40,828 nucleotides of DNA, taken from assembly GCA_044342325.1 (NCBI GenBank), contig JBIIPZ010000030.1, forward strand, positions 1 to 40,828. Direction: 5' to 3'. Position 1 is the first letter of the stretch, and each line of letters opens with the position of its first letter. This DNA is from Terrimicrobiaceae bacterium (lineage in GTDB: Bacteria; Verrucomicrobiota; Verrucomicrobiia; Chthoniobacterales; Terrimicrobiaceae). The notes beneath the pieces were generated by a model. The model did no database searches and was not told where the DNA came from. It was given only the letters and a program-made list of their open reading frames with translations. The translations under genes and the position numbers were made by a program. Below are positions 1,107 to 23,037 of this stretch, one piece after another.

Positions 1107-3341
1107 TCAGGCGGCTTGGAGTTTCTCGACGCGCACATGGGCGTTGTAGTCGGGCACTCCGCCGTGGGCGTCCACCACGCCTTTGCGAATGATGGTGTTT
1201 CCCTCGGGCCAATGGACCTGCAAATTCCCCTGGGCGATCGGCGCGCAGTGCACGCGGCCTTCATAGCGTCCCAGAGTATTTACAAGGGCGATCCGGTCGC
1301 CGGTCACCACATGCAAACGCGCCGCATCCTCGGGGCTCATCAGGATGGCATCACGCGGAGCGTTGTTGAGGGGATCGATCTCGGCGTAGATGAGTGTGTT
1401 GAATTGCTTGCCTCGGCGTGTGCTGACATGAAATTCGCCGGGTTTGCGGTGGAGCGGGGGAATCGCGACATTGCGGAAGTGCCCCCGGCCGTCTGTCGTT
1501 GGAAACTGCCCGTCGGCGCAAAGGTGTGGGCCGCCGTATTGAAAGGCATCACCGGTCTTCCTGAGGTGCTGGACTCCATCGTAGAAGGGGACGACCCGCG
1601 CAATTTCCTCGCGCATTTTCCAACCTGTCTCGCAGCCGAAGAGTGATGCTTTTTCGGGATAGGCCGCCAGCGCGAGGTCGCGCAGGATTTTCCATTCCGC
1701 CTTGGCCTCGCCGACCTGACGAGGAATTTCCGGGGTGAACATGACGCGTCGCTCGGTGCTCGTCTCCATGCCCCCGTCGTCCTGTTCATATCGGGTCTTG
1801 GCTGGCAACAAAAAGACCGCTTCTTGCGTTGGTATGAACATCTGATCGGTGAGGATGATGTCCTGATGCACACGCACCGGCACTCGACTCATCGCCTCCC
1901 TCACATAGTCGGGCTCTGGCAGGGTGCGGAGAAAATTTCCGCCCAGACAGTAAAAGACATCAAGCTCGCCGCGTTCGCAGGCCTCGACCATTTCGGTCGC
2001 CGGCATTCCAGGCCAATCGGGAACGGGGAAGCCGTATTCTTTCGAGAGTTTTTCGGCGTTTTCGGGAGTGATCGATTTGTTTCCGGGAAAAGCGGTGGCA
2101 TAGGCTCCCATCTCGGCACCGCCTTGCACCGAGGAGTGACCGCGGATCGGCATGACGCCGTTTTTGTCGCGGCCGATGTAGCCCCGTGCCAGAGCGAGAT
2201 TGAGAATCGTCTGAACCCCGTCGCCGCCGAACGGATGCTGGGTGATGCCCATGCTCCAGACGAGAACGGCGTTTTTTGCATCGCGGATGAGTTCCGCAAA
2301 GTCGCGCATCGCCGCGCGGTCGAGTCCGGCGTCTTTTTCCAGCGCTTCCCAGTCCATCGCCGCCACATGGGCCTTGAGTTCCTCGAATCCCGTTGTGTGC
2401 TGGTCGATGAAGTTTTGATTAACCCATCCCTCGGCGAAGAGGATTTTCATTATGCCCGAGAGGAACGCGATATCGCCGCCTTGGCTCACTGGGAACCAGT
2501 AGTCGGCGATGTTCGTGCCGAAGAGCGCGGAGTCGGCATTCGAGGGAACCCAATACTTTTTCATTCCGGGCTCGAAGTAGGGATTCACCAGAACGATTTT
2601 CGTCCCGAGCTTTTTGGATTCGTGCAGATACTTTGTGGAAACTGGTTGGTCGTTGGCGGGGTTTGAGCCGAAAAAAATCACGAGGTCGGTTCCATACCAA
2701 TCCTTGTAGCTGCAGGTCGTGGCGGCCACGCCGAGCGCCTCTTTCATGGCCGCGCCCGAGGGCGAGTGGCAAATGCGGGCCGCGTTGTCCACATGGTTGG
2801 TGCCGAGGAATCGGGCCGCCTTCTGTGCCATGTAGTAGATTTCATTCGTCACGCCGCGCGCCGTCACAAAAAACGCCATGCGGTGCGGATCGGTGGCTCG
2901 TAGCTTCGCCCCGAGGCGTTGATCGACCTCATTCCACGAAATGCGGCGAAATCCCGGCGCGCCCTTTTCGCGGACCATGGGATAGGGCAGGCGTCCCAGT
3001 TCCCGCAGTTGCGCGTTGTCCATTTTTTCCAATTTCGAGACATCAGCCAGAAGCCGCTCGTCGAGGGCGGAAACCGTGTTTAGACGCAGAAGATTCAGAC
3101 GCGTCATGCACAGATGCGGCCCCTTCACCGTCCAATCGTGCAGACCCGCCACGCCGAGCGCGCAGCCATCGCAGACGCCGCGAGTGATGACTTTCCAAGC
3201 ATAAGGAAGGTTGTCCTTGTTCTTCCAAACGACATGGAGCATGTCGCGAAAGTGCTTCGGCTTGGTGCGGCCAATGCCGAATGGCGCGCAACCCTTGAGT
3301 TTCTGAAGGAACGAACGGCGGACGGCGTGGGATGAACTCAT
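1107..3341 (-). CDS. FdhF/YdeP family molybdopterin oxidoreductase
   Basis: GVCDGCALG, RFLGTNHVDNAARICHSPS, MPIRGHSSVQG and a C-terminal STRRGKQFN molybdopterin-dinucleotide-binding domain. ATG 3341 preferred over 3359. Confidence 0.9.
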   Translation of the reverse strand: MSSSHAVRRSFLQKLKGCAPFGIGRTKPKHFRDMLHVVWKNKDNLPYAWKVITRGVCDGCALGVAGLHDWTVKGPHLCMTRLNLLRLNTVSALDERLLADVSKLEKMDNAQLRELGRLPYPMVREKGAPGFRRISWNEVDQRLGAKLRATDPHRMAFFVTARGVTNEIYYMAQKAARFLGTNHVDNAARICHSPSGAAMKEALGVAATTCSYKDWYGTDLVIFFGSNPANDQPVSTKYLHESKKLGTKIVLVNPYFEPGMKKYWVPSNADSALFGTNIADYWFPVSQGGDIAFLSGIMKILFAEGWVNQNFIDQHTTGFEELKAHVAAMDWEALEKDAGLDRAAMRDFAELIRDAKNAVLVWSMGITQHPFGGDGVQTILNLALARGYIGRDKNGVMPIRGHSSVQGGAEMGAYATAFPGNKSITPENAEKLSKEYGFPVPDWPGMPATEMVEACERGELDVFYCLGGNFLRTLPEPDYVREAMSRVPVRVHQDIILTDQMFIPTQEAVFLLPAKTRYEQDDGGMETSTERRVMFTPEIPRQVGEAKAEWKILRDLALAAYPEKASLFGCETGWKMREEIARVVPFYDGVQHLRKTGDAFQYGGPHLCADGQFPTTDGRGHFRNVAIPPLHRKPGEFHVSTRRGKQFNTLIYAEIDPLNNAPRDAILMSPEDAARLHVVTGDRIALVNTLGRYEGRVHCAPIAQGNLQVHWPEGNTIIRKGVVDAHGGVPDYNAHVRVEKLQAA

Positions 3342-3362
3342 AAAAAGAATAATCCACAAACA

Positions 3363-4328: not shown

Positions 4329-6623
4329 TTAGAATTCGTCGAAGGCGATGTGGTTTTTATCGACGCCCATGCCTTCGAGCATGGTGCGGGCGGCTTGGAT
4401 CATCGGTTGCGGGCCGCAGAGATAGTATTCCAAGGTGGCAGGGTCTTTGTGTTGGCCGAGGTATTCGCGGTGGAGCACTTCGTGGATGAAGCCGGTGTGT
4501 GAGGTCCAGTTGTCCTCCGGCAGCGGCTCGGAGAGGGCGATGTGGAATTTGAAGTTCGGGAACTTCCGCGCGAGGTCTTCGAAGTAGTCTTGATAGAAAA
4601 CTTCCTGCTTCGAGCGGGCGCCATACCAGAAGCTGACCTTGCGTCCGGTTTTCAGCGTGTCGAAGAGGTGCGAGAGGTGGGAGCGGAGCGGGGCCATGCC
4701 GGCGCCGCCGCCGAGGTAGATCATTTCGTTTTCCGTATCCTTCACGAGGAAGTCGCCGAAGGGGCCGAACGCCTTCACGGTGTCGCCTGGCTTGAGGTTC
4801 CAGACATAGGAGGACCCGACGCCGGCTTTGCAGTCCTGCCCGCGCGGCGGCGTGGCGATGCGGACATTGAAGCGGATTTGGGTGTCCGTTTTGGGATTTG
4901 TCGCGAGCGAGTAGTTGCGGCGCACCTCGGCGTGGTTCTCGGTGGCGTAGTCAAAGACATGGTTGGCCTTCCAGACGGCGTCGAATGGCGGGCGGATATT
5001 GAAGTTTTCAAACGAGATCTTCCCGTAGGCAGGGATGAACATTTGGATGTATTGGCCGGCCTGGTAGTCGAGCTTGGGCGTGTCGGGAAGAGGCTCAAGA
5101 ACGACCTCTTTGATAAATGTGGAGACATTCTCGTTGCTAACAACGCGGAAGGTGTAGGCCGTGGCGGCTTGCTTCGCGCCTTCGCCGCCGGCTTTGTAGA
5201 CATTCATAAAAATCCGGCCCTCGGTGACGCGGACCGGATAGGTTTTGAGGGCAATGCAGACCGGTGGACGCTGGGTCGAACCGTCGCGCATGTCGAAGCG
5301 GCCATTGTGTTTCGGGCACTCGATGAGGTTTCCTTTCACCATGCCGGTGGCGAGGTGCGTGTTGCCGTGGGTGCAGATGCCGTCGGTCGCGTGGTATTGG
5401 TCATCACCCGAGCGGTAGACCGCATAGGTGCTGCCGCCGTAGTCGAAGCGCAGCACATCCTCGCGCAGGAGCGCATCCACAGGGGCGACTTCGATCCAAC
5501 CTTCGGCGTCCGCCATGCCGGTTGAGACGATGGTTTTTGCCGCCTCGTTTGCTGCGGAGCGGACGGTGGGCGTCGGGAGAACGCGCTTCACAAAATAGCC
5601 GGGGTCTTTGACCTGACGCAGAACGGCGGGAATGATCTCGCTCCACGCATGGAAGATGCTGCGGTAGGGAGTCGGCATGTCGGGCTTCACGACTTCGTGG
5701 AGTTTCGGCAGGTTGTGATACGGCACCAACGGGAACATGTGGTGCTCCACATGGTAGTTCATGTTCCAATACAAAAATCGGTTGATCGGATTCATGTAAA
5801 CCGTCCGGCAGTTCATGCGGTGGTCGAGCACATTTTCAGCAAGACCGGCGTGCTGTGTGAAGCCATAGATCGGCATCATCCAGGCCCCGAGGAGGTTTGG
5901 CAGGCCGATGTAAAGAAGCGGCAGGATGCTGCCCAAATAGAAGCATGCGGCGATCACCGTGATGTAGATGGCAAGGTAAACGCGCGCTTTGAAATAAATC
6001 GCGGGACGCGCCGACTCGGGAATGTAGGTCGCCTCTTCGGCATCCAGACTGCCTGCGGCGTGGCGGAACACCTTCTTGAAATAGGCGATGGCGGCTGGGT
6101 AGCCGAGAAATGTCGTCAGAAAGCTTTTAATGCTGGCCGGGCGGGGAACGGCGATTTCGGGGTCGCGGCCAACGACAATCGTGTCGCTGTGATGCCGAGT
6201 GTGGCTCCAACGCCAAACAGTGCTCTCACGCATGACCATGAACGAGGAAATCTCGTAAAGCGCGTTGTTCATCCAATCGCTCTTGAACGCGGTGCCGTGG
6301 CTCGACTCGTGCCAGCGCGAATCCGAGGTCGTGCCGTAAATCACCCAATACGCCATGAAGGGAACCAGCGCCCAGGCACTTGGCCAGAGGAGAAATCCCG
6401 CATAGCCGAAAAGACCGAGTAGGCCGAACCAAATGATTGTGTCGCGAATGGCAGGGCCGTTTTTGCGTTCGAGCAATTGGCGCATCACATCACGCGGAAC
6501 GGGGGATTGATACCACTCCGCTTCGGCGAGGCCTTTTTCAACGGCCAGTTTGGAATTCACACCGACGAGACTGTAGTCACTCAGTTGATGGGGTTTTGAA
6601 TCGGATTCGGCAATGGCGCTCAT
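4329..6623 (-). CDS. Fusion protein: MocD-like membrane di-iron oxygenase (fatty-acid desaturase fold) + Rieske [2Fe-2S] ferredoxin (MocE-like) + NqrF-like FAD/NADH reductase
   Basis: His boxes HESSH, HTRHH, QH and HVEHH plus TM helices (aa ~1-350). Rieske CTH...CPKH (Cys417). NqrF-like RNYSLA, NVRIATPP, SSYVWNLKPGD, GGGAGMAPLRSH, WYGARS, EYYLCGP and terminal FDEF. Confidence 0.9.
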   Translation of the reverse strand: MSAIAESDSKPHQLSDYSLVGVNSKLAVEKGLAEAEWYQSPVPRDVMRQLLERKNGPAIRDTIIWFGLLGLFGYAGFLLWPSAWALVPFMAYWVIYGTTSDSRWHESSHGTAFKSDWMNNALYEISSFMVMRESTVWRWSHTRHHSDTIVVGRDPEIAVPRPASIKSFLTTFLGYPAAIAYFKKVFRHAAGSLDAEEATYIPESARPAIYFKARVYLAIYITVIAACFYLGSILPLLYIGLPNLLGAWMMPIYGFTQHAGLAENVLDHRMNCRTVYMNPINRFLYWNMNYHVEHHMFPLVPYHNLPKLHEVVKPDMPTPYRSIFHAWSEIIPAVLRQVKDPGYFVKRVLPTPTVRSAANEAAKTIVSTGMADAEGWIEVAPVDALLREDVLRFDYGGSTYAVYRSGDDQYHATDGICTHGNTHLATGMVKGNLIECPKHNGRFDMRDGSTQRPPVCIALKTYPVRVTEGRIFMNVYKAGGEGAKQAATAYTFRVVSNENVSTFIKEVVLEPLPDTPKLDYQAGQYIQMFIPAYGKISFENFNIRPPFDAVWKANHVFDYATENHAEVRRNYSLATNPKTDTQIRFNVRIATPPRGQDCKAGVGSSYVWNLKPGDTVKAFGPFGDFLVKDTENEMIYLGGGAGMAPLRSHLSHLFDTLKTGRKVSFWYGARSKQEVFYQDYFEDLARKFPNFKFHIALSEPLPEDNWTSHTGFIHEVLHREYLGQHKDPATLEYYLCGPQPMIQAARTMLEGMGVDKNHIAFDEF

Positions 6624-6722
6624 TGTTTTTGGGGTGTTAGTTGATTTTGGGATTTTATGAAGTCAGGGAGGGGATTTGCGGCTCTTTGGGGAAGGTGCGA
6701 ATCCATCCATTTGGCTTATGCG

Positions 6723-6769
6723 ACGATAGAGTGGGCTGGGATTTTGCCAATGGGCTGGAGTTCGTTAAA
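6723..6769 (-). promoter_or_regulatory. Putative promoter (TTGGCA-16-TATCGT) of the fusion gene, overlapped by tandem TGGGCTGG direct repeats (candidate AraC sites)
   Basis: TGGGCTGG at 6732-6739 and 6751-6758. Minus-strand -35 at 6750-6745 and -10 at 6728-6723. Confidence 0.3.
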
Positions 6770-6829
6770 TATGCACAAAATTCGCATTTCGACTTGTAGC
6801 TGGTTTGGGAGTGCTGCGAGAATTTCGGT

Positions 6830-7723
6830 ATGGACCCGATACCCGTGTCGCCGCGCTTGGAACTCAAATATATTTACGGCTCGGTGGTGCATTACCGTCC
6901 GGGTGACAAGCTCGCGCCGCGTTTGCTTCAGGATTTCGAGTTAGTGTTGATGATCGAGGGGACGGCCAACTACCGCTGCGGCGCGGTGGACCACAAGGCG
7001 CCGCCTGGGAGTTTGATTCTGGCTCGGCCTGGCTTTCAGGAGGCTTACAGCTGGGATACGGGAGGTGCAACGCGACATGCGTATGTGCATTTCGATATAG
7101 AGGCCATTCCTGAAGGCTGGGCGCAGCCAGATAAGTGGCCGATTCTGATTAAAAATCCCGCTCCCGTGGTCGCGCCAATGCTGCGCCACCTGCTGGGCCG
7201 TATTTCCGCCCATGGTGAAACAGCCTGGCCCACTTTGCGCGCTTGGCCAGAGGAGAGTCTTTTCATGGAGTGTCTGTTGGGAATTTTGATTCAACCCTCG
7301 CGAGACGAGGCCCTCGCCGTGGGGGACCGCTTGCCCGAGCAGGTGCACGCTTCGTTGAATTTCATGAGAGCGATCCTGGACACGAATCCTCATTACGCCC
7401 TGCAACTCGGCGAACTCTCAAAACGAGCGGGAGTCACCGAAAAACACCTCTGCCGCGTTTTCCAGACATCACTCGGCCATGCGCCCATGGAGACATTTCG
7501 CCTCCTCAAACTCCAACTCGCCATGGCCCTGCTGGGGCGATCCAGTTTGGCTATTAAAGAAATTGCCGACCGCTGCGGGTTTGAGAATCCGCTTTATTTT
7601 ACGCGATGCTTCACACGGGTGTATGGAAAATCCCCCACCGAAACGCGGCAGTCGTTGCTCAAGCAAGAAGCCCCTCCGCCGAACCCGCTGCCACCGGATA
7701 TCGCGCCGAGGATATATTGGTGA
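6830..7723 (+). CDS. AraC family transcriptional regulator
   Basis: N-terminal cupin-like ligand domain and C-terminal double HTH (LSKRAGVTEKHLCRVF; IKEIADRCGFENPLYFTRCFTRVYGKSP). Divergent from the fusion gene. Confidence 0.95.
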   Translation: MDPIPVSPRLELKYIYGSVVHYRPGDKLAPRLLQDFELVLMIEGTANYRCGAVDHKAPPGSLILARPGFQEAYSWDTGGATRHAYVHFDIEAIPEGWAQPDKWPILIKNPAPVVAPMLRHLLGRISAHGETAWPTLRAWPEESLFMECLLGILIQPSRDEALAVGDRLPEQVHASLNFMRAILDTNPHYALQLGELSKRAGVTEKHLCRVFQTSLGHAPMETFRLLKLQLAMALLGRSSLAIKEIADRCGFENPLYFTRCFTRVYGKSPTETRQSLLKQEAPPPNPLPPDIAPRIYW

Positions 7724-8636: not shown

Positions 8637-10175
8637 TTAACTTTCCAGTTGAATTGGATAAATGCTGTCCGGCCCAAGCGCCTGTGATGTGATCTCCATT
8701 TGTGCCGTCTCTGCAGCGAGCGGCAAGTCGGGCGGAGCCTCAGGAATGGAGGAGGCGATTCTAAGAAACTCCTCCGCATATCGTGTCGGAGTGTGCGGTG
8801 CTTGAGTTGGCCAAGGGGTAGGGGCGAAGCGTGTGTTGCGGATTTTTGCAAGGTAAGGATTGAGGGCCTCGCAGGCTCTCCAACTCTCCACAGGCGGATG
8901 GGAGAGCACTTCCATCTGGGCGCACCGGGAGAGGCGGCTGAAGGAAAATGGACCTCTGGCATCTGCTGCCAAAACCGGAAATATCTTTTGAAATGGTAAA
9001 GGAAGATGCCCTCTCGCTGAATCGGCGAGTTGCGATTGTCGATGCATCTCCGCTTCGACATCAAAGAGCCCGGGTGCGATTTGGATGTCATTGTAAAGCT
9101 GCGGAAACTCAAAGCCCATCGCGGCGAGGTCTGGCATGACTGCTGGAATCGCTCGCGCGATGAGGGGCGTGCCGGCGGCTGCGGTCTCCACAAAGGTCAT
9201 GCCGAAGCCCTCCTGCACAGAGGTGTGCACGACCACTTCGGCAATTTGTAAGAGGTCAGCGACGCGCGGTGCGCCCGGCTTGTCGAGCAAGCCGAAATGC
9301 ACACGCCAACCGTGTTTCGCCGCCGCTTGCTTGAGATCGTGCGCGTAGTTTGCCTCGTCTTGCGAATACTGGCCGGATGTGGTGGCTAAAATCGCTTCCG
9401 GCTTGAGCCAGCGTGTGAGCAGGATGGCCTCTAGGAGGTTTTTACGTCTCAGAAAACGGGTTGGGTAAATCCACAGCGGGGCTTCGCTTTTGAGTTCCTT
9501 CGCCACCCATGCCTTGGCTGCGTCGATATTCGCCGGGCTTGATGCGGCGGGTCGCAGAACGGGGTTGGGCAAATGAAAAGCGTTCGCCGGAAAGCAGCGC
9601 TTGAGTGTTTGGAAGTCCTGCAAATTGATTCCCGCATGCACGGAGCGTGTGCCGGAGGCGAATAGGATATCGGCCGCACTGGAGAGGTCTGGGCAGCCGC
9701 ATTGCTGCAGTTCGCTCCAGCGCGCCCAGCGGCCGGCGCACCAGAAATCATGGTGATGCAAGATCAGCGCCGCGCCCGTTTCCTTCGAGATTTTCGCGAC
9801 TTCTCGGCATAGGATGGCATTGCGGGCGAGGGCGGGATTTTGAAACCAAATCAGCGTGCGAGAGGCGGCGCTGCCCTCCATTACCCGCCAGAGAGAGCGC
9901 TGAATTTTTCCCGAGATGACCTCTGGAGTCTCTGCTTGATTCGAAAAATAGTCGCAGGCCGGTTCCTGGATGAAATCGGTGGGCAAGCCGAGCGTTCCCA
10001 GTTCGGGGCGCTCGCTTTCATTTCCTCCGCTGAGCAAGGTGATCCGTTTGAGCGAGGTGCCCGCCGCTGCGGCAATGGCGGGCAGCGTTAACTCCACCAC
10101 CCTCCGGACGCCGCCCGGACGCCAGTGGTAATGAATCACCACTAGATGCTCGAATGGTATGGACGCCTTGCTCAT
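8637..10175 (-). CDS. GT-B fold glycosyltransferase (GT4-like)
   Basis: HYHWRPGGVRRVV, HHHDFW, YPTRFLRRKNLLEA and the EX7E motif SVQEGFGMTFVE. Confidence 0.8.
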   Translation of the reverse strand: MSKASIPFEHLVVIHYHWRPGGVRRVVELTLPAIAAAAGTSLKRITLLSGGNESERPELGTLGLPTDFIQEPACDYFSNQAETPEVISGKIQRSLWRVMEGSAASRTLIWFQNPALARNAILCREVAKISKETGAALILHHHDFWCAGRWARWSELQQCGCPDLSSAADILFASGTRSVHAGINLQDFQTLKRCFPANAFHLPNPVLRPAASSPANIDAAKAWVAKELKSEAPLWIYPTRFLRRKNLLEAILLTRWLKPEAILATTSGQYSQDEANYAHDLKQAAAKHGWRVHFGLLDKPGAPRVADLLQIAEVVVHTSVQEGFGMTFVETAAAGTPLIARAIPAVMPDLAAMGFEFPQLYNDIQIAPGLFDVEAEMHRQSQLADSARGHLPLPFQKIFPVLAADARGPFSFSRLSRCAQMEVLSHPPVESWRACEALNPYLAKIRNTRFAPTPWPTQAPHTPTRYAEEFLRIASSIPEAPPDLPLAAETAQMEITSQALGPDSIYPIQLES

Positions 10176-10243
10176 CGCTGCAGGCTATCATTTCCCCGGG
10201 CTTGCTCAATGCCGCTCAGGCGCTGAGAGTGGCGGGCGTCTTT

Positions 10244-11455
10244 ATGGCGGATTTTTACCAGCACGGCACGATTGCGACTCTTCATCGCCTCGGAAACCCT
10301 AACTACAAGAAACTCGAGGAGGAAATGGTCTCTCTGGCCCGCACTTCGCCTCTTGCGCTCGTGCTTCCCTGTCATGCGAGGGATTTGAACTCCACCGCTC
10401 TTGCCGCAATCGTCGCTGAGCTTCGTGATGCCCGTTTTGTGAGTTATGTCACAGTCGGCCTCGACGGGGGTGATGCGTCGGACTTCGACACGGCGCATCG
10501 GATTTTTTCCATGCTCCCGCAGCGGGTTTCGATTCTCTGGAATGATGGCCCACGCATCAAAGCCCTTCTCGCCGATCTGGTTCGCGCCGGCCTCGATCCC
10601 GGGCCAATGGGCAAAGGCCGCAATATGCGTCTCTGTGTTGGGCAGGTGCTCTCTGGCACAGACGCGACAGCCGTGGCCATCCATGATTGCGACATACTCC
10701 ACTACCGGCGCGAACTGCTCGTGCGCCTTTGTTTTCCAGTGCTCCATCCCGACATGGCGTTTCATGTCAGCAAGGGTTTCAGTGCCCGTTTTTCGACGCA
10801 GCTGAATGGTCGCGTCATGAGGCTTCTCATCACTCCTCTGCTTCGCGCGATGGAGGGCCTCGAGGGCTTCTCTGAAACGCTAGCGCCGTTGCAGTTTTTC
10901 CGCTACCCGATCAGCGGCGAGGTTTGCCTGCATCGATGCGTTGCGGAAAGCGTGAGATTCCCTTCCGACTGGGGTGTGGAAACCGGCATGATGGCAGATG
11001 TTTTTCGCGTGGCTGCCATGCAAAGAATTTGCCAGGTCGATATCGCCGAGAGTTACGACCACAAGCACCAGAGCCTCTCGGAGGGAGACCCTGATGCCGG
11101 GCTGAACAAAATGGCATGCGAGGTCGCCCTCTGCCTGTTGCGCGCCGCTGCCCTTGGAATTGCGACCACGGCATCGAATCCGTTCCAGGGCCTTGTTGAA
11201 AAATTCCGTCAAGCTGCCAAGGGCATGCTGCACTGTTACTCGGCCGACGCTCGCATCAACACTCTCAAGTTTGACGGTGAACTCGAAGCACGAACGATCG
11301 AGCTTTTTGCCGCAAGTCTTGGGCGGGCGATTTCCATTCACGAGGCCGATCCCGGCAAGCCTGCCGGAGCGCCATGCTGGCAGGAAATCGAGTCCAACTT
11401 GCCAGGCTTCGGTATCGCCCTCGCGCAGGCTGCGAGCGACTATGCGGCGCGGTGA
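10244..11455 (+). CDS. gpgS: Glucosyl-3-phosphoglycerate synthase-like GT-A glycosyltransferase
   Basis: MADFYQHGTIATLH N-terminus, GKGRN, DxD in HDCD, NGRVMRLLITPLL, RYPISGE, DWGVE and QVDIAESYDHKHQ. Confidence 0.75.
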   Translation: MADFYQHGTIATLHRLGNPNYKKLEEEMVSLARTSPLALVLPCHARDLNSTALAAIVAELRDARFVSYVTVGLDGGDASDFDTAHRIFSMLPQRVSILWNDGPRIKALLADLVRAGLDPGPMGKGRNMRLCVGQVLSGTDATAVAIHDCDILHYRRELLVRLCFPVLHPDMAFHVSKGFSARFSTQLNGRVMRLLITPLLRAMEGLEGFSETLAPLQFFRYPISGEVCLHRCVAESVRFPSDWGVETGMMADVFRVAAMQRICQVDIAESYDHKHQSLSEGDPDAGLNKMACEVALCLLRAAALGIATTASNPFQGLVEKFRQAAKGMLHCYSADARINTLKFDGELEARTIELFAASLGRAISIHEADPGKPAGAPCWQEIESNLPGFGIALAQAASDYAAR

Positions 11456-15680: not shown

Positions 15681-17027
15681 TTGGAAGAATGGTCGCACTC
15701 TATGGTTTTTCATCACAGCTCGAATCTTCGTGCGGGAACCCGCCCTGACCTGCGTGGGCTTGTGGGAGGGGCGCGGATTTCCTTTTCCGGCATCCGCCGC
15801 TTCGAGTGGGATCTTGAGGATCTGGGGGGCTTTTCACCGCTGTGGCTGGATGCCGCCGCGATTTATCCCAAGGTCTTCTGGAGATCGCGCTCCGGTGCGG
15901 CACAAACGCTGGCGGTGGGAGCATTGCAGGGAGGCAGCCTGCGGGATTTGTTGCCGCTCCTGGATGGCGCCGACGAAGGGGTGCGACTCTTCGGGGGTGA
16001 GCGGTTTGCTGCAGCTGCTGATCCAAAGGAGGGTTGGAAGGAGTTTCCCGAGCGTTACTTTTTTATTCCGAGGGCGGAGATCATTCATGCTGGAGGGCGC
16101 ACTCTGCTTGCGGTGAATCTGGCTGGAGGCGATGAGGCGATGGACGAGTTGGAGGATTGGGTTGCGGCGCTCGGGGAGTGCCCTCCGCCGCACCAGCCTG
16201 CTGTTCTGACACGCTGGGACATTCCGAATTTTACCCAATGGTCTTCGGCTGTCAGTGCCGCGCTGGAGGGCTTTGCTTCGGGTCCGTTGCGCAAGGTGGT
16301 TCTAGCCCGGCGCTCCACACTCGATCTTGTGGAAAAGGTATCGCCTCATCTTCTGCTTGCTGTGCTGATGGGAGCCGCCCCGGCATGCTTTCACTTTTCA
16401 TTCCAACCCTCCGCACGGGCTGGAGCTTTTCTCGGAGCGAGTCCGGAATTGCTCTACCGCCGTATTGGGACACGCCTCGAGAGTGAGGCCGTCGCGGGAA
16501 CCCGTCCGCGCAGTCTGGATGCCGCTGAGGATGAAAGGTTGGAATCCCAGCTCTTGAAACTTTCCAAGGAACAATTGGAGCACCGCCTTGTCGTGGAGGC
16601 TCTGGAGCAAACCTTCCGCCGTCTCTGCGTCGATTACGCCTGCGATGAAAAGCCAGGCGTGCTCAAGCTCTCCCGCGTGCAACACCTCCGAACTGCCGTT
16701 TCCGGAACGCTCCGCGGGGCGGTGGATGACGCCGCAATTCTTGAAGCCTTTCATCCCACGCCCGCCACATGCGGAGCCCCCGTTGCCGATGCGCTGCGTT
16801 TTATCTCCGATCACGAGAATTTCGACAGGGGCTGGTATGCCGGTCCTTTTGGATGCGTCTCGAAGGACTCTACTGAATTCGCCGTCGCGATCCGGTCGAT
16901 GCTGGCCAAAGGATCTCAAGTCGAGGTTTTCGCAGGAGCGGGGATCGTCGAGGGGTCTGATCCCGAGCGGGAGTGGTTCGAGCTGGAGGATAAAATCTCG
17001 GGCGTCTTGAATGTGCTTTCGGCATGA
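15681..17027 (+). CDS. menF: Isochorismate synthase
   Basis: KVVLARR, FLGASPELL, EAVAGT, HPTPATCG, DRGWYAG and FAGAGIVEGS. Start is either TTG 15681 or ATG 15702. Confidence 0.93.
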   Translation: MEEWSHSMVFHHSSNLRAGTRPDLRGLVGGARISFSGIRRFEWDLEDLGGFSPLWLDAAAIYPKVFWRSRSGAAQTLAVGALQGGSLRDLLPLLDGADEGVRLFGGERFAAAADPKEGWKEFPERYFFIPRAEIIHAGGRTLLAVNLAGGDEAMDELEDWVAALGECPPPHQPAVLTRWDIPNFTQWSSAVSAALEGFASGPLRKVVLARRSTLDLVEKVSPHLLLAVLMGAAPACFHFSFQPSARAGAFLGASPELLYRRIGTRLESEAVAGTRPRSLDAAEDERLESQLLKLSKEQLEHRLVVEALEQTFRRLCVDYACDEKPGVLKLSRVQHLRTAVSGTLRGAVDDAAILEAFHPTPATCGAPVADALRFISDHENFDRGWYAGPFGCVSKDSTEFAVAIRSMLAKGSQVEVFAGAGIVEGSDPEREWFELEDKISGVLNVLSA

Positions 17028-18700
17028 GCGGTGTTCCGTCCAACCGCACTTGGGGGCAGTCGCTCGTGGATGGGCTTTGCCAACTGGGCGCGGATCGGTT
17101 TTTTCTCAGCCCTGGAGCGCGCAGTGCCCCATTGGCCGCCGCCTTGAGCGGACACAATGTGACCACCCATTACGACGAACGCGGCATGGCCTTTGCCGCT
17201 CTGGGATGGGCGATGGCAACCGGACGCCCTGCCGTTTGCGTGACAACCAGCGGGTCTGCCGTGGCAAACCTCCTTCCCGCTTGCGTGGAAGCCTTCCACT
17301 CGAATGTGCCGCTCATCTTTCTGACAGCCGACCGTCCACCGGAATTGAGGGGCACGGGTGCAAACCAAACGATTCATCAGCCCGGTCTCTTCGGAGGGTT
17401 TGTCCGGTATGCCGTGGATTTGCCATGTGCCCAGGATGCCGGGGCCATGTCGCGTCTCGCTGGTGTGCTTTCGCAGGTTGTCGCGATAGCAATGGGGCCT
17501 CAGTCCGGGCCTGTGCATTTGAATGTCCCGATTCGCGAGCCTTTGCTCGAAAGCGGGATTGCGGCGCTTGATGAGAAAATCGAGTTTTCGAGGGTTGCGA
17601 ATTCATTTCCATTTGATTGGCCATCCGATTTCGATTTCCAGAGGTTCGCATCCGGTCGCGGCGTTGTTGTGATCGGTCGATTGCCTGTCGGGGAGCAGAA
17701 CAAGGTGGGTGCCATTTTGGATTTGGCAAAAAAATTGGGCTGGCCAGTCCTTGCGGATGCCGCTTCAGGAGTGCGTTTGCGGCCTGAGATCATTCGCCAT
17801 GCGGATTGGATTCTCCAGCGCCACGATGTGCCCGGGCCGGAGCGAGTCCTGCATTTCGGGGGCGCACTAGTTTCGAAGCGCATCGGGAAATGGTTGTCGG
17901 CATGTAGTGGAGCCGACTGCCTGCAGGTGCGGATGTTCCCCGAGCGGCTTGATCCTTGGAATCAGAATCCCGTTTTCCTCCGTGCTGGGATTCAGCCGTT
18001 TTGCGAATTGGTGAATTCATTCGCCCTGCCGATGCCAGTCGACACTTGGATCGAATCCTGGCGCCGGGCGGATGTGGCCGTCGGGGCCGCGATTGAGGCC
18101 GAGTTGCCCGCAGATGATGCTGTCAGTGAACCGGCGATTCTCCGTGCTTTAGCTGATGTCGCCGCCGAGACAAATTGGCCAGTGTTCCTTGGAAATTCCA
18201 TGCCGATCCGGGATTTTGATTCCTGTGTGTCTGCGGTTTCGAATGATGTGGTCAATGTTTTTGCCAACCGGGGAGCCAGTGGAATCGATGGGAATATCGC
18301 CACTGTGGCTGGACTGGCTCTGGGCTGCGTGTCTCCTCTTCTGGCCGTCATGGGTGACCTTGCCGCACTGCACGACTTGAATTCACTTCCGCTCCTGCAT
18401 GGATTGTCCGTCACGCTGGTGATTATCAATAATGGGGGGGGCGGCATTTTCCGTTTTCTACCGCTCGATGTGGAGGAGAGATTGCTGGAAACTCCCCATG
18501 CATGGGAATTTCGCGGAGCCGCACAGCAGTTTGGCATCGAATACCACCAAGTGGCCTCGCTTTCGGAACTACGCAGATTTCTCGCAGAGCGCCATGTCGC
18601 GCCTCGAATCCTCGAGTGCCGCACAGACCGCACTGAGAATCACGCTCTCCACCTTCGCATCGCCGAATCTTGTCGTTCGCTTCCTTTGTCATGGAGCTGA
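17024..18700 (+). CDS. menD: SEPHCHC synthase
   Basis: SPGARSAPL, DERGMAF, TTSGSAVANL, TADRPPEL, NRGASGIDG, GDLAALHDLN and NNGGGGIF. ATGA overlap with menF. Confidence 0.96.
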   Translation: MSGVPSNRTWGQSLVDGLCQLGADRFFLSPGARSAPLAAALSGHNVTTHYDERGMAFAALGWAMATGRPAVCVTTSGSAVANLLPACVEAFHSNVPLIFLTADRPPELRGTGANQTIHQPGLFGGFVRYAVDLPCAQDAGAMSRLAGVLSQVVAIAMGPQSGPVHLNVPIREPLLESGIAALDEKIEFSRVANSFPFDWPSDFDFQRFASGRGVVVIGRLPVGEQNKVGAILDLAKKLGWPVLADAASGVRLRPEIIRHADWILQRHDVPGPERVLHFGGALVSKRIGKWLSACSGADCLQVRMFPERLDPWNQNPVFLRAGIQPFCELVNSFALPMPVDTWIESWRRADVAVGAAIEAELPADDAVSEPAILRALADVAAETNWPVFLGNSMPIRDFDSCVSAVSNDVVNVFANRGASGIDGNIATVAGLALGCVSPLLAVMGDLAALHDLNSLPLLHGLSVTLVIINNGGGGIFRFLPLDVEERLLETPHAWEFRGAAQQFGIEYHQVASLSELRRFLAERHVAPRILECRTDRTENHALHLRIAESCRSLPLSWS

Positions 18701-19488
18701 AATTCCGCACGCTCGGCACCGGCAGTCGAGTTCTGCTCTGCCTTCACGGGTTCTTGGGCGAAGGGAGTGATTGGGAGAAATTTGCAGATGCATTCCTCGT
18801 GCACTCGCCGGACTGGCAACTCGCCCTGATCGACCTGCCGGGCCATTCTGACGAGGAAGCTGGCTGGCTTTGTCCGACGGTGGCTGAATTTTCTCAATCC
18901 ATGGGTGACTTGGTGTTCGCCGAAGGGTGGGGGACAGCGGCGATTGCTGGATATTCTTTGGGTGGGCGTCTGGGGCTTCAGACGGCTCTTTCTTTTCCTG
19001 AGGTCTTTCCGGTTTTTATCGGAATCTCCACCACAGCTGGAATCGATGATGAGGAAGAGCGCACACGCCGGGTGGATTCCGATGCGGCCCTCGCCAAGCG
19101 GCTCCGCTCGGGCGCCGATTTTGACGGTTTTCTCCGCGAGTGGTGGCATCAACCGGTCTTTGCATCCCCTGCTCGGGTGGGTGACGATGTGGAAAATTTT
19201 GTGACCTCCCGCCAACGGCGTGACCCTATCCGCATGGCGGCGTGTCTCGAGACTTGGAGCTCCGGCAAGATGCCTTCGCAATGGTCTGCCTTACCTGATT
19301 ATCCGGGTCGCGCCCTGCTGCTCAGCGGCGAGGTCGATACAAAATACATAACGACCGCTGAGCGAATGCAGGCTGGATTTCAGAATGCCAAGCACTTCGT
19401 CGTTCACGGAGTCGGACATCAGATTCTCATGGAAAAGCCCCAAGAAGTGGCCCTCGCCATGGCTGCTTTTCTAAACCAGCGCGAGTGA
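18691..19488 (+). CDS. menH: SHCHC synthase (alpha/beta hydrolase)
   Basis: LHGFLG, DLPGH and nucleophile GYSLGGR; overlaps the menD 3' end. Confidence 0.88.
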   Translation: MELKFRTLGTGSRVLLCLHGFLGEGSDWEKFADAFLVHSPDWQLALIDLPGHSDEEAGWLCPTVAEFSQSMGDLVFAEGWGTAAIAGYSLGGRLGLQTALSFPEVFPVFIGISTTAGIDDEEERTRRVDSDAALAKRLRSGADFDGFLREWWHQPVFASPARVGDDVENFVTSRQRRDPIRMAACLETWSSGKMPSQWSALPDYPGRALLLSGEVDTKYITTAERMQAGFQNAKHFVVHGVGHQILMEKPQEVALAMAAFLNQRE

Positions 19489-20028: not shown

Positions 20029-20811
20029 TTACTTTTGAATCCGGAAGGCGCCTGTTTGTTTGTCGGGGTTGCTTTCCTTCATGATGAAGGGGATGCCTTT
20101 GAGCCAGAGGCGGAGGGCTTCCCAGTGGATGAGGAAGATGATTTTCAGGGTGACGAGGGGGAATGCGAGGGTGAGTCGGGCGAGGTTGGAGGTGGTGAGT
20201 TCTGTCCGCTTGCCGGTGAGGGTGCTGATGAGGTTTTTTTTGTCGCCTTGATAGTTGTCGATCGCGATGTGGAGGTGCTGGCCGGGGTTTTTGAAGCGGA
20301 AGTCAAACGCGAGGTCGAGCGCGGAGAAGGGGGAGACATAGTAGTTTTTCGGCACTCGGATGTGGAAGCCATTGCCGGACTCGTCGAGCGAGACGAGGTA
20401 GGGCTTGAGTTCGCCGAAGGTATTGCCGACTTGAACGACGGATGTGAGCGGGCGGTTTTCCGAGTCGAAGCAGAAAAAAATGGAGATCGGGTTGAAGGTG
20501 TAGCCGAGCATGCGGGGGAGTGTGAGGAGGCGGATGCGGGCGGGACGTGCGGAGATGTTTTGGGTTTGGAGAAAGGTCTCAAGATTCGCGCGGAGGCCGC
20601 GTGAGTGGAATTGGAAGTAATCCTCGTTGCGGAGCGAGTAGAGATTCGGTTCCTCCGCGCTGAAGATCGGCACGGTGCGGGTGAGCGAGGGGATTTCGTC
20701 GAGATCGAGGAGGAATAGGAAAATCCGGTAAACGAACTCGTGTGGCTTAGGGTGCAGTCTGCGGTGCATCACAGTGCACTCGTAGAGGCAGGATGCCGCC
20801 GGGTGGTTCAT
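20029..20811 (-). CDS. DUF1365 family protein
   Basis: VMHRRLHP, LLTLPRMLGYTFNPISIFFC, NTFGE, KNYYVSPF and IHWEALRLWLKG. ATGA overlap with the upstream gene. Confidence 0.9.
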   Translation of the reverse strand: MNHPAASCLYECTVMHRRLHPKPHEFVYRIFLFLLDLDEIPSLTRTVPIFSAEEPNLYSLRNEDYFQFHSRGLRANLETFLQTQNISARPARIRLLTLPRMLGYTFNPISIFFCFDSENRPLTSVVQVGNTFGELKPYLVSLDESGNGFHIRVPKNYYVSPFSALDLAFDFRFKNPGQHLHIAIDNYQGDKKNLISTLTGKRTELTTSNLARLTLAFPLVTLKIIFLIHWEALRLWLKGIPFIMKESNPDKQTGAFRIQK

Positions 20812-22079
20812 TGGCCGAGGAGCGGGCGCAGCACGGCGGTGAGGTCCACGGCGGAGCTGTAGGCGTCCTCGTGAAACCCATGCCGGAAGTAGCTTCCGCA
20901 AAAGAAAATTCGTTGCCGTGGCGAGCGGGTGTTTAGCGTCGGGAGTTCATGCTGGGCTTCCATGGCGCGCAGCGTGAAGACGGGGTGCTCGTAGTCGGTC
21001 TGGTAGAGGACGGCCTCGGGGCGGATTTTGTCGGCGCCGTTCACGGAGACAAAGTAGTCGCGGGTTTTGCTGACGCCTTGAAGGGCGTTCATCCAGTAGT
21101 GAGTGGTCGCCTCGCGGTCGCCGTGGGCATCCTGCTCGACTCGGTAGTTCCAGGACGCCCAGGCTCGACGGATGCGTGGCATGACGGAGTGGTCTGTATG
21201 AAGCGTGGCGGTGTTTTTTTGATATCCGAACGCGCCCAGCAGGCGGCATTGGGCTTCATCGGGCGCAGCCAGCATGGCGAGGGCCTCGTCGGCATGGGCG
21301 GCGATGATGACGCGATCGAACTCGCACACTGTTCCATCCTCGATGCACACGGTGGCCGAGATTTCGGATTCCTTCACTTCGACGGCCTTGGCGGGGAGTT
21401 GGACGGGGCGAAGATGGGCGAGGAGCTTGTCTCTGTAGCTGCGCGAGCCTCCGCTGACGGTGAACCATGGGTGGTGGGTCGTGACTCCGAGAAATCCGTG
21501 GTTTTGAAAAAAGCGGATGAGGCTCAATGCAGGGAAATCGAGCATCTGGCGCGGATCGGTGGACCAGACCGCAGAGCTCATCGGGATAAGGTAGAGGTTG
21601 AGGAAATCGACGCCCAAGGCGTTCCGGTGCACAAATTCGCCGACGGTGCAGTTCAGCGAGTCGGGTTTTTCCAGAAGTGCGCGGGCGACACGGAAGAAGC
21701 GCAGGATTTGGAAAACGAGGGCATGAAAGCGCGGGTTAAGGATGTTGCCGCGCTGGGCGAAAAGTTTGTCGAGCCCCATACCATTGTATTCAAGGCCGCT
21801 CGGCACGTGCTGGACGCTGAAGGACATTTCCGAGGGCTTTGTCTCGACGCCGAGTTCCTCGAAGAGCCGCACCAGATTGGGGTATGTGGCATGGTTGAAG
21901 ACGATGAATCCTGTATCAATCGGGATTTCGCGTCCGTTTTCCTCCACCGTCACGGTGTTCGTGTGTCCACCGGGCCGAGCCTCGCGTTCGATGAGTGTGA
22001 TGTCGGCATGGTTGCGGAGTTGCCACGCCGCTCCCATGCCGGCGATGCCAGAGCCGATGATGCCGATGCGTTCTCTCAC
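20808..22079 (-). CDS. FAD-dependent oxidoreductase (amine-oxidase-like, COG2907 type)
   Basis: IGIIGSGIAG, GGHTNT, IDTGFIVFNHATYPNL, WASWNY and FCGSYFRHGFHEDA. GTG start overlaps the desaturase stop. Confidence 0.9.
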   Translation of the reverse strand: MRERIGIIGSGIAGMGAAWQLRNHADITLIEREARPGGHTNTVTVEENGREIPIDTGFIVFNHATYPNLVRLFEELGVETKPSEMSFSVQHVPSGLEYNGMGLDKLFAQRGNILNPRFHALVFQILRFFRVARALLEKPDSLNCTVGEFVHRNALGVDFLNLYLIPMSSAVWSTDPRQMLDFPALSLIRFFQNHGFLGVTTHHPWFTVSGGSRSYRDKLLAHLRPVQLPAKAVEVKESEISATVCIEDGTVCEFDRVIIAAHADEALAMLAAPDEAQCRLLGAFGYQKNTATLHTDHSVMPRIRRAWASWNYRVEQDAHGDREATTHYWMNALQGVSKTRDYFVSVNGADKIRPEAVLYQTDYEHPVFTLRAMEAQHELPTLNTRSPRQRIFFCGSYFRHGFHEDAYSSAVDLTAVLRPLLGQ

Positions 22080-23032
22080 TGGCGTGTGGGTTGCTCGACC
22101 GGGGCTTTGTCGTAAATGCGGGCTGGAACTCCCTTGATGTCCCACACGAGACCAAATGTGCTGAGCAGGCGGATTACATAGTAGGAGATGTCGATTTCCC
22201 ACCAAAAGAAACCCTGCCGTGCGGAGGATTGGAAGTGGTGGTGGTTGTTGTGCCAGCCCTCACCGAGTGTCAGCAGCGCAAGAAGCAAGCTGTTCCGGCT
22301 TTCATCACCCGTATTGAAGCGTTTTTTTCCGAAGCAATGCGTGAGTGAATTGATGGTGCAAGTGGCATGGAACAAAACTGTGGTGCTGATGAAAAATCCC
22401 CAGATGACCATTTGCCATGGTGAGGTTCCAAGTCCGGGTGCAAAGGCTTCCAGTGAGGCTCCGAAGCCGTAGAGACCGGTAAACAAAAGCGCCGGGCCGA
22501 TCAAGTCGAAGCGGTTCAGGAAAACCAGCTCGGGATATCTTGCGAGATCCTTCACGCGGTCGTAGTCGGTGGGGAAATTCCTGCTGCTGGTCAACCAGCC
22601 AATGTGGGACCAAAGGAAACCCTTCATGCCGGGGGAGTGGACGTCGTGCTCGTCATCCGAGTGCCTGTGGTGGTGGCGGTGCACGGATGCCCACCAGAGA
22701 GGGCCGCGTTGCACGGCGGTGAGACCAAGAAGGGCGAAGAGGAATTGGGTGATCCGCGAGGTGTGGTAGGCGCGGTGGCAGAAGTAGCGGTGGTAGATAG
22801 CTGTCACAGCAAACATGCGGGTGAAATACAGCACCACGGCAGTGATGACGGCCGCCCAGCTCCAGCCTGTCCAGATGACGCCGAGGCAACCGAGATGCAG
22901 GATGATAAAAGGAATAGCCCGCGAGAATTCAAAGCGCTCTGGCATCTCACGCACTTTCTCAGCGCCAGCGGGAAAGTAATCCGAGTCGATGGCGCGGATG
23001 AAAGGTGCGAATAGTTTTTTTAAAACGGGCAT
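22076..23032 (-). CDS. Acyl-CoA/acyl-lipid delta-9-type desaturase
   Basis: His boxes HRYFCH, HRHHH and GEGWHNNHH; WWEIDISY. Alternative TTG start at 23041 overlaps the parB stop. Confidence 0.92.
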   Translation of the reverse strand: MPVLKKLFAPFIRAIDSDYFPAGAEKVREMPERFEFSRAIPFIILHLGCLGVIWTGWSWAAVITAVVLYFTRMFAVTAIYHRYFCHRAYHTSRITQFLFALLGLTAVQRGPLWWASVHRHHHRHSDDEHDVHSPGMKGFLWSHIGWLTSSRNFPTDYDRVKDLARYPELVFLNRFDLIGPALLFTGLYGFGASLEAFAPGLGTSPWQMVIWGFFISTTVLFHATCTINSLTHCFGKKRFNTGDESRNSLLLALLTLGEGWHNNHHHFQSSARQGFFWWEIDISYYVIRLLSTFGLVWDIKGVPARIYDKAPVEQPTRQ

Positions 23033-23037
23033 TGGTA

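Follow-up and report, generated by a model that had tools for sequence, protein, structure and literature searches.

The window analysed here, a stretch of 40,828 nucleotides from a Terrimicrobiaceae bacterium (contig JBIIPZ010000030.1), carries at positions 4329..6623, on the minus strand, a gene (P0001) for a three-domain oxygenase of 764 amino acids (aa), in which a MocD-type membrane di-iron domain, a Rieske [2Fe-2S] ferredoxin domain and an NqrF-type FAD/NAD(H) reductase domain are joined in one chain. The fusion is a real gene, neither a misassembly nor a chance open reading frame (ORF), and there is about an even chance that its product is an NADH/O2-driven O-demethylase of a methylated sugar. 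Its TIM-barrel partner, which belongs to no Pfam family, and a one-carbon (C1) link in the gene row are newly recognised here. Methyl ethers block sugar catabolism, and the sole sugar demethylase met in the available parts of the literature searched is a P450 system of marine bacteria. If the proposed function is true, a second, self-powered membrane enzyme would alter models of methylated-polysaccharide turnover and of its C1 by-products in lakes and soils.

A predicted complete electron path in one chain

The ORF at 4329..6623 begins with ATG, contains no internal stop codon and includes its own stop codon in the interval. An initial annotation of this DNA had described a single uninterrupted 764-aa ORF with a complete electron path; the ORF and its Pfam and NCBIfam domains bear this out. 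The coordinates given there also hold, and the strand, which had been left unstated, is minus.

Residues 1-353 (5565..6623, minus) make up the MocD-type di-iron domain, assigned by Pfam family PF00487, by its histidine boxes and by a neighbour-joining (NJ) tree. The FA_desaturase family (PF00487) covers residues 80-326 with 121.7 bits against a gathering cut-off of 29.7. All the His boxes named in the initial annotation were located by a motif script: HESSH (105-109), HTRHH (141-145), QH (257-258) and HVEHH (291-295). The three boxes that fit HX3-4H, HX2-3HH and HX2-3HH provide eight His ligands. Hydrophobic stretches at 61-95 and 208-250, each of two-helix length, come from a Kyte-Doolittle scan, and the AlphaFold2 model shows long helices at both. 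The Rieske domain follows at residues 376-475 (5199..5498, minus), with PF00355 covering 376-463 (59.1 bits) and the ligands C417-T-H419-x16-C436-P-K-H439; the initial annotation had recognised this CTH...CPKH motif correctly and had miscounted its spacing as x17. NCBIfam places the domain closest to TIGR02377 (MocE family ferredoxin), whose cut-off of 136.15 bits it narrowly misses with 129.3. Across 11 aligned family members, no substitution occurs at any of the eight box histidines, at H258 or at the four Rieske ligands.

The reductase domain occupies residues 489-764 (4332..5159, minus), with FAD_binding_6 (PF00970) at 553-625 and NAD_binding_1 (PF00175) at 637-746. TIGR01941 (NqrF) scores 347.9 bits against a cut-off of 295, and residues 489-764 match model positions 129-403 of 405 only. 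The motif script found RNYS (569-572), GAGMAP (640-645) and CGP (736-738), which we take to be the FAD motif RxYS, the NAD(P)H motif GxGxxP and the C-terminal CGP, respectively. The NqrF-type FAD/NAD C-terminus proposed earlier is thus confirmed by TIGR01941, Pfam and the fold match below. Among 25 of the 35 NCBIfam matches of the fusion, no AlkB family is found.

The whole-chain AlphaFold2 model, built from a 79-row alignment, has a predicted local distance difference test (pLDDT) score of 89.9, a predicted template modelling (pTM) score of 0.69 and a low-confidence linker at residues 354-358. In this model, the reductase domain fits onto the NqrF FAD domain 7qty (Z 40.8, root-mean-square deviation (rmsd) 1.2 A, 46% identity), and a PDB sequence search matches this domain to the NqrF FAD domain 2r6h with 306 bits. 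The Rieske domain resembles the ferredoxins of toluene dioxygenase (3dqy; Z 19.2, rmsd 1.1 A) and naphthalene dioxygenase (2qpz; Z 18.1). The fold search of the 764-aa model is dominated by reductase matches, and its single row for the N-terminal domain is 8xks_K (Z 21.0, 298 aligned residues, 12% identity); no match to this domain occurs among the best 60 of 120 PDB sequence-search rows.

The fusion in other genomes and samples

The fusion protein was recovered by tblastn in 80 of 80 fetched loci of other assemblies. Moreover, the top 120 of 120 database matches are 751-787 aa long, are 63-95% identical, cover at least 98% of the query and have an identical Pfam set. The initial annotation had considered that separate genes might have been misassembled into one ORF; contigs of public lake-water runs, aligned to the window, bridge both domain junctions. 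In particular, DNA contigs of a different lake sample (X3) span the desaturase/Rieske junction (5335-5597) with 0 mismatches and the Rieske/reductase junction (4632-5301) with 2 mismatches, no joints being reported. The junction between the oxygenase and the TIM-barrel gene is crossed by X2 and X3 contigs. Contigs of RNA libraries (X19, X22) overlap the gene and this last junction as well; DNA carry-over is possible in them and they are not evidence of transcription.

A word-indexed search found 3634 proteins at E <= 0.001 among 8000 scored candidates. In an exhaustive search of 50%-identity representatives, 17040 matched at E <= 0.001, 4336 at <= 1e-10 and 607 at <= 1e-30. Among the best 150 of these representatives, a single one (P0113, 760 aa, 65%) is a full-length tri-domain protein, so the fused family seemingly lies within about one 50% cluster. 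The others are fragments, two-domain MocD-Rieske proteins (456-498 aa), solo MocD-like proteins (324-370 aa) and NqrF-like reductases. The two-domain proteins of 456-498 aa, which have no reductase (P0123, P0128, P0137, P0138, P0153, P0154 and P0185), may be intermediates between the split and fully fused forms; alternatively, P0123 could be a truncated gene call.

With one genome counted per species, at least 584 species genomes carry the fusion (584 of 598 pattern matches confirmed). By record title, the best 80 loci come mainly from Verrucomicrobiota and Acidobacteriota, with a few from Planctomycetota, Chloroflexota, Kiritimatiellia and Proteobacteria, and the nearest relatives (95-98%) belong to metagenome-assembled genomes (MAGs) of freshwater Terrimicrobiaceae or 'Spartobacteria'. 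In an even sample of 301 Verrucomicrobiota genomes, the full-length fusion occurs in 24 genomes and in 18 of 148 genera: the gene is accessory and patchily distributed. Cultured bacteria that carry it include Oleiharenicola lentus (L039) and Rubellicoccus peritrichatus (P0037). Its members bear the public names 'NADH:ubiquinone reductase (Na(+)-transporting) subunit F' or 'MocE subfamily Rieske protein'. The name NqrF is an annotation error that stems from the single reductase domain, and the many named entries labelled in this way wrongly imply a sodium-pumping respiratory complex. Our literature search found no study or characterisation of the fusion, most subscription journals being outside its reach, in agreement with the earlier statement that no biochemical characterisation of such a protein was known.

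Kinship of the catalytic domain

In tblastn searches, residues 1-353 match 288 plasmid records, mostly of Rhizobium and Sinorhizobium, with 53-56% identity over 95% of the query; mocD of R. etli CIAT 652 is 53.6% identical over 95%. These rhizobial homologues are annotated as mocD or as 'fatty acid desaturase family'. Plasmid pA of R. etli CIAT 652 carries a divergent LacI gene followed by mocD, mocEa (Rieske ferredoxin) and mocFa (ferredoxin-NAD+ reductase). Records of S. meliloti and R. sophoriradicis show the same LacI-regulated row, the latter without a reductase gene and with a sugar ATP-binding cassette (ABC) transporter. Thus, mocF is present in two of the three inspected rhizobial records, and sugar ABC transporter genes lie downstream in one (L099). 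The rhizobial MocF is annotated as a 408-aa FAD-dependent oxidoreductase, a class different from the NqrF-type domain of the fusion. Directly after the mocDE(F)-like row, all three inspected rhizobial operons have a PanB-like gene for 3-methyl-2-oxobutanoate hydroxymethyltransferase (L090 9670-10479; L091 9849-10649; L099 10490-11326). PanB uses methylene-tetrahydrofolate, and its gene at this place may be a hint of formaldehyde handling. The rhizopine MocDEF proteins are reported, in work of Bahar et al. in 1998, to demethylate 3-O-methyl-scyllo-inosamine; we know of no in-vitro assay of MocDEF. According to the available part of PMC10107442, mocDEF take part in rhizopine catabolism and the mocD promoter is inducible by rhizopine.

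An NJ tree of the N-terminal domain was computed with Biopython from 45 sequences and 322 columns (100 bootstraps), with the two other FA_desaturase genes of the genome as outgroups. The tri-domain proteins are monophyletic (90/100) and are sister to the two-domain P0123 (97/100). The MocD-like group that includes the fusions is split from the two outgroup genes in 100/100 replicates, and deep nodes inside the group are weak (18-36/100). The initial annotation had left room for an N-terminal domain that clusters with acyl-lipid desaturases; with these two in-genome outgroups, no such clustering is seen. These comparisons support the assignment of the catalytic domain to the MocD-type proteins, not to the acyl-lipid desaturases.

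Gene row and TIM-barrel partner

The gene next to the oxygenase (P0122; 3464..4312, minus) begins 16 bp past the oxygenase stop codon and encodes a xylose-isomerase-like TIM barrel of 282 aa. It matches no Pfam family even at E <= 10, PF01261 (AP_endonuc_2) included, has no NCBIfam match and has no sequence relative in the PDB. Its AlphaFold2 model (pLDDT 89.8, pTM 0.88) has at least 500 Foldseek matches at E <= 0.001, the best of them with probability 1.0, TM scores of 0.55-0.66 and 9-18% identity. The top matches are L-ribulose, D-psicose and D-tagatose 3-epimerases, IolE, IolI, UlaE, YcjR and a C-glycoside deglycosidase. The neighbours of P0122 in the ESM Atlas are 'putative xylose isomerase' clusters, mostly from Verrucomicrobiota. 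Invariant in the family are E125, H127, R128, D158, S160, H161, H193, R195, P245 and E246. Of these, E125, D158, H193 and E246 are placed at strand ends and probably correspond to the E-D-H-E metal site of the xylose-isomerase-like superfamily. In contrast to the epimerases and isomerases of that superfamily, P0122 has H127, R128, S160, H161 and R195 as extra invariant residues, which suggest that its chemistry is distinct.

In 8 fetched loci, tblastn places a P0122 homologue after the fusion. Moreover, the P0122 profile matches a neighbour cluster of ~296-aa proteins (hhalign 99.3%, E 3.4e-20, 266 columns); by this match the two form one superfamily, which stands beside the fusion in 31 of 82 loci. 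In the 301-genome sample, a profile of the TIM family finds members in 37 genomes: 22 of the 24 that carry the fusion and 15 of the 277 that do not. In 11 genomes of this sample, their coordinates make the two genes immediate neighbours.

The row continues 104 bp downstream of P0122 with a gene (1107..3359, minus) for a 750-aa molybdopterin (Mo) oxidoreductase of the FdhF/YdeP family, which is formate-dehydrogenase-like. Its TIGR01701 score (642.8 bits against a cut-off of 582.15) makes it the genome's only match over the cut-off of that family, and its nearest solved relatives are all formate dehydrogenases. On the other side of the oxygenase, a divergent gene on the plus strand (6830..7723) encodes a 297-aa AraC-family regulator with a cupin-type ligand domain (Pfam HTH_18, HTH_AraC, AraC_binding). 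Orthologues of it (55-93% identity) adjoin the fusion in 11 fetched loci. The 206-bp divergent intergenic region between the two genes (6624..6829) is, from its position only, a presumed promoter/operator. It contains one weak sigma-70-like match (minus strand, 6750-6723), which is not evidence of function, and a scan for promoters and terminators found nothing that exceeds the shuffled expectation.

Neighbourhoods and one-carbon genes

The neighbourhood of the fusion was surveyed in 82 loci, namely the best 80 that were fetched, this window and its paralogue; ORFs were called and clustered, and cluster representatives and the +1/-1 genes were annotated. The greedy ORF caller preferred long antisense ORFs and skipped the fusion in 3 of the 82 loci. 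The new TIM-barrel family is found in 31 loci; its unnamed ~296-aa cluster, the most frequent +1 neighbour, is found in 24, mostly as the next gene on the same strand. An AraC regulator lies within the fetched flank of up to 8 kb in 33 loci. Aldose 1-epimerase (mutarotase) is a neighbour in 21 loci, in 17 of them directly adjacent. Parts of corrinoid methyltransferases (URO-D-like, B12-binding or RACo) occur in 10 loci, AP_endonuc_2 TIM barrels in 9, Sugar_tr transporters of the major facilitator superfamily (MFS), RhaT and GFO/IDH/MocA proteins in 5 each, and an FdhF/YdeP-type Mo enzyme in 4. In L062 and L046, genes of GH35, GH43 and a PL11 rhamnogalacturonan lyase lie directly upstream of the fusion. 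The survey supports sugar-related, and not lipid-related, gene neighbours of the fusion. The initial annotation had proposed a methylated cyclitol or sugar rather than a lipid; the sugar-type, non-lipid setting stands, and a cyclitol appears less likely than an aldose, given the frequency of aldose 1-epimerase.

An 18-kb locus of a Verrucomicrobiia MAG (L071, 348-18209) combines a P450, two URO-D-like and two B12-binding genes, a mutarotase and the fusion with a P0122 homologue (58%), a HIBADH-like dehydrogenase, an alpha/beta hydrolase and a Mo enzyme that is 28% identical. It would place three different candidate demethylation systems side by side. In L014 and L015, whose fusions are orthologues of 89% identity, the downstream genes are different, namely a mutarotase and a GFO/IDH/MocA gene.

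The C1 thread extends to a second cluster of the same genome (L101; contig C42, 5450-12982), whose genes run in one direction and comprise MoCF, a MobA-MoaD fusion, an FdhD-MOSC fusion, a metallo-beta-lactamase, a HIBADH-like dehydrogenase, a second TIM-family gene and an aldose 1-epimerase. A gene for the maturation of formate-dehydrogenase-type enzymes is thereby found within a related sugar cluster.

Proposed function and alternatives

O-demethylation is the reaction to which homology and gene neighbours point. It is the best-supported reading because of the kinship with MocD, the company of methyl-handling systems (corrinoid methyltransferases, a P450, the rhizobial PanB-like genes) and the formate-dehydrogenase-like enzyme with its FdhD link; moreover, the mutarotase fits the release of an ordinary aldose. 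In the proposed mechanism, NADH would reduce the FAD of the C-terminal NqrF-type domain, and single electrons would pass via the fused Rieske [2Fe-2S] centre to the His-box di-iron site at the cytoplasmic face of a four-helix membrane domain. There, the enzyme would use O2 to hydroxylate the methyl carbon of an O-methyl ether carried by a free sugar that the cell has imported. This sugar would most likely be an aldose derived from a methylated polysaccharide of plants, algae or cyanobacteria, and the resulting hemiacetal would decompose into the plain sugar and formaldehyde. The divergent AraC regulator would turn the operon on, the presumably co-transcribed TIM-barrel enzyme would isomerise or epimerise the sugar, either as substrate or as product, and in this lineage the formate-dehydrogenase-like Mo enzyme would clear the C1 product as formate to CO2. 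The architecture, the cofactor motifs, the relation to MocD-type genes, the sugar-type setting and the association with the TIM barrel are observed; how the electrons run, that demethylation is the reaction, which sugar is used and what the TIM barrel and the Mo enzyme do are inferred. It is conceivable, though less likely than not, that the fusion, its obligate TIM-barrel partner and the Mo enzyme constitute an undescribed aerobic module, in which sugar methyl ethers would be removed and the methyl carbon carried through formaldehyde and formate to CO2.

The following points count against the proposed O-demethylation. In the literature searched, no measured activity was found for any family member, fused or not. 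For the rhizopine MocDEF proteins themselves, the available part of PMC10107442 speaks only of catabolic involvement and rhizopine inducibility. Plain demethylation needs no isomerase, which leaves the role of the TIM barrel unexplained. The counts for its co-occurrence with the fusion overstate independence because the sampled genomes are related. The neighbourhoods are heterogeneous, 34 of the 82 loci having no sugar-type seed family at all (several of them on short contigs), and C1-related neighbours are a minority there (corrinoid parts in 10 loci, the Mo enzyme in 4). No class-III (glutathione-dependent) formaldehyde dehydrogenase (TIGR02818) exceeds the cut-off in the 86%-complete genome, so the step from formaldehyde to formate is without a candidate. 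The Rieske domain scores slightly below the NCBIfam cut-off of the MocE family, and the pTM of the whole-chain model implies an uncertain packing of the domains.

Among the alternatives, there is a negligible probability that separate genes were misassembled or joined by a frameshift into a chimera, or that the protein is the NqrF subunit that databases make of it. NCBI and JGI call many members NqrF and TIGR01941 exceeds its cut-off; however, the same unbroken ORF recurs in all of the fetched loci and top database matches, contigs from another sample cross both junctions without joints, and the match to model positions 129-403 only leaves out the transmembrane helix and the plant-type 2Fe-2S domain of NqrF. 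Moreover, Pfam and NCBIfam scans found neither an nqr gene nor an nqrABCDEF operon context among the window ORFs submitted; next to the fusion lie the AraC, TIM-barrel and Mo-enzyme genes. It is very improbable that the fusion is an acyl-lipid desaturase or hydroxylase with redox partners of its own, even though the Pfam family is FA_desaturase, the domain is a putative membrane domain with desaturase-type His boxes and there is a weak NCBIfam match to DesB. This match (33 bits; cut-off 500) and that to GntB (cut-off 380) fall far under threshold, and the N-terminal domain is only 18-20% identical to the two lipid-type FA_desaturase genes of its own genome, from which the tree separates it in every replicate. 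The annotated neighbours (cluster representatives and +1/-1 genes; 104 + 31 proteins) include zero lipid-metabolism families; the sugar-type AraC or LacI regulation and the patchy, accessory distribution likewise speak against a lipid substrate.

Two further alternatives keep the fusion as an oxygenase of sugar-like compounds. It would be rather surprising if the substrate of the same type of enzyme were an O-methyl cyclitol, such as pinitol, ononitol or a rhizopine-like inosamine, instead of an aldose. The closest named relatives are mocD-type genes, the fold of P0122 matches IolE and IolI among others, and Sugar_tr MFS and GFO/IDH/MocA, families that include inositol transporters and inositol dehydrogenases, are each neighbours in 5 loci. 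On the other hand, aldose 1-epimerase acts on free aldoses, GH35, GH43, PL11 and RhaT neighbours indicate polysaccharide-derived sugars, and no mocA, mocB, mocC or mocR-type set was found among the scanned window ORFs; moreover, the inspected rhizobial homologues lie in LacI-regulated operons, one with a sugar ABC transporter, and the rhizopine cluster itself is not among them. Unlikely, though less so than a cyclitol, is some other sugar oxidation, either C-methyl hydroxylation of a 6-deoxy sugar or formation of a keto/enol product at a ring carbon, followed by isomerisation by the TIM barrel. RhaT-type rhamnose symporters are directly adjacent to the fusion in 5 of the 82 loci and a rhamnogalacturonan lyase occurs in 2. 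The most faithful partner of the fusion, the TIM barrel, has a fold like that of keto-sugar enzymes (ketose 3-epimerases, the 3-keto-glucoside epimerase YcjR and C-glycoside deglycosidase), and a keto-sugar product would account for the need of an isomerase. Membrane di-iron enzymes of the superfamily of the fusion, such as AlkB and XylM, hydroxylate terminal methyl groups; we know of no precedent in this superfamily for such a reaction on a sugar. However, another oxidation would leave unexplained the corrinoid methyltransferase parts and the P450 of L071, as well as the C1 signs, namely the formate-dehydrogenase-like enzyme with its FdhD link and the PanB-like genes of all three rhizobial operons.

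Paralogues and other genes

The genome has a second fusion (L007; contig C27, 4212-11859) of 758 aa and 62% identity, with its own divergent AraC gene. After it come genes for an NHL-repeat protein (316 aa), a protein of 675 aa that matches no Pfam family and an MFS transporter; the arrangement suggests another operon built on this plan, specific for a substrate of its own. There are also three solo MocD-like genes, two on contig C78 and one on C60. On C78 (L008, 89-4255), a pair of adjoining AraC genes lies between the two solo genes (368 and 358 aa), and no Rieske or reductase gene was found among the nearby ORFs scanned.

Elsewhere in the window, an unrelated FA_desaturase gene (22076-23041, minus; 321 aa, 63.6 bits), 20% identical to the N-terminal domain of the fusion, adjoins genes for an amine-oxidase-type flavoprotein (20808-22205) and a DUF1365 protein (20029-20901); this cluster (20029-23041, minus) is probably a true lipid-modifying one. 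A GT4 glycosyltransferase gene (8637-10175, minus) overlaps by 22 bases the start of a plus-strand gene (10154-11455) that is glucosyl-3-phosphoglycerate-synthase-like, its NF040724 score of 250 bits being far below the cut-off of 700. A menaquinone-type row (15681-19488, plus) consists of an isochorismate-synthase-like gene (Chorismate_bind), a MenD-like thiamine pyrophosphate enzyme and an alpha/beta hydrolase.

Comparison with known systems

The fusion shares with the rhizobial MocD, MocE and MocF proteins a homologous catalytic domain, a MocE-like Rieske domain as the presumed electron carrier, the need for a flavin reductase and sugar-type regulators. It differs from them in that all three functions reside in one chain and in that the reductase is an NqrF-type domain of the FNR fold and not the 408-aa FAD-dependent oxidoreductase. 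Moreover, its genetic partners are an AraC regulator and the new TIM barrel, instead of the LacI regulator and PanB-like gene of mocDEF-like operons. With NqrF of the Na+-translocating NADH:quinone oxidoreductase, the fusion has in common an FAD/NADH domain (43-46% identical, Z 40.8, rmsd 1.2 A), whereas it has no counterpart of the N-terminal membrane helix or of the plant-type 2Fe-2S domain in NqrF.

The initial annotation had presented the protein as a self-sufficient fusion. The architecture stands as described; the concept is not new, since an active three-domain alkane monooxygenase, ferredoxin reductase-ferredoxin-AlkB (ferr_ferrR_AlkB), is described in the available part of PMC8918992, and a one-chain membrane di-iron oxygenase is thus already known. 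As far as that part of the source goes, both are natural single-chain membrane class-III di-iron oxygenases with both redox partners, and both are mis-annotated in public databases, the AlkB protein as a desaturase or reductase. However, its redox partners are N-terminal, whereas the order in the fusion is oxygenase, Rieske, reductase; its carrier is named a ferredoxin, whereas that of the fusion is a Rieske domain; and AlkB acts on alkanes, whereas the fusion is MocD-type and lies in sugar operons. As a natural di-iron oxygenase of the membrane type that has a Rieske carrier in the same chain, the fusion would be handy for studies of electron delivery in a class of enzymes that is hard to study, and for biocatalysis.

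In the P450 system of marine bacteria, 6-O-methyl-D-galactose is oxidatively demethylated to galactose and formaldehyde, according to the available parts of PMC6292453 and PMC10033563. The O2-dependent demethylation of a methoxy sugar proposed for the fusion, in the service of polysaccharide use, resembles this reaction. In contrast, the P450 is a soluble haem enzyme, unrelated to the fusion, whose redox partners are separate proteins and whose activity is demonstrated, whereas that of the fusion is proposed from homology and gene context. If the proposed module is real, abundant freshwater and soil Verrucomicrobiota and Acidobacteriota would have a second, P450-unrelated route to methylated polysaccharides, with a TIM-barrel step for which the known P450 pathway offers no equivalent.

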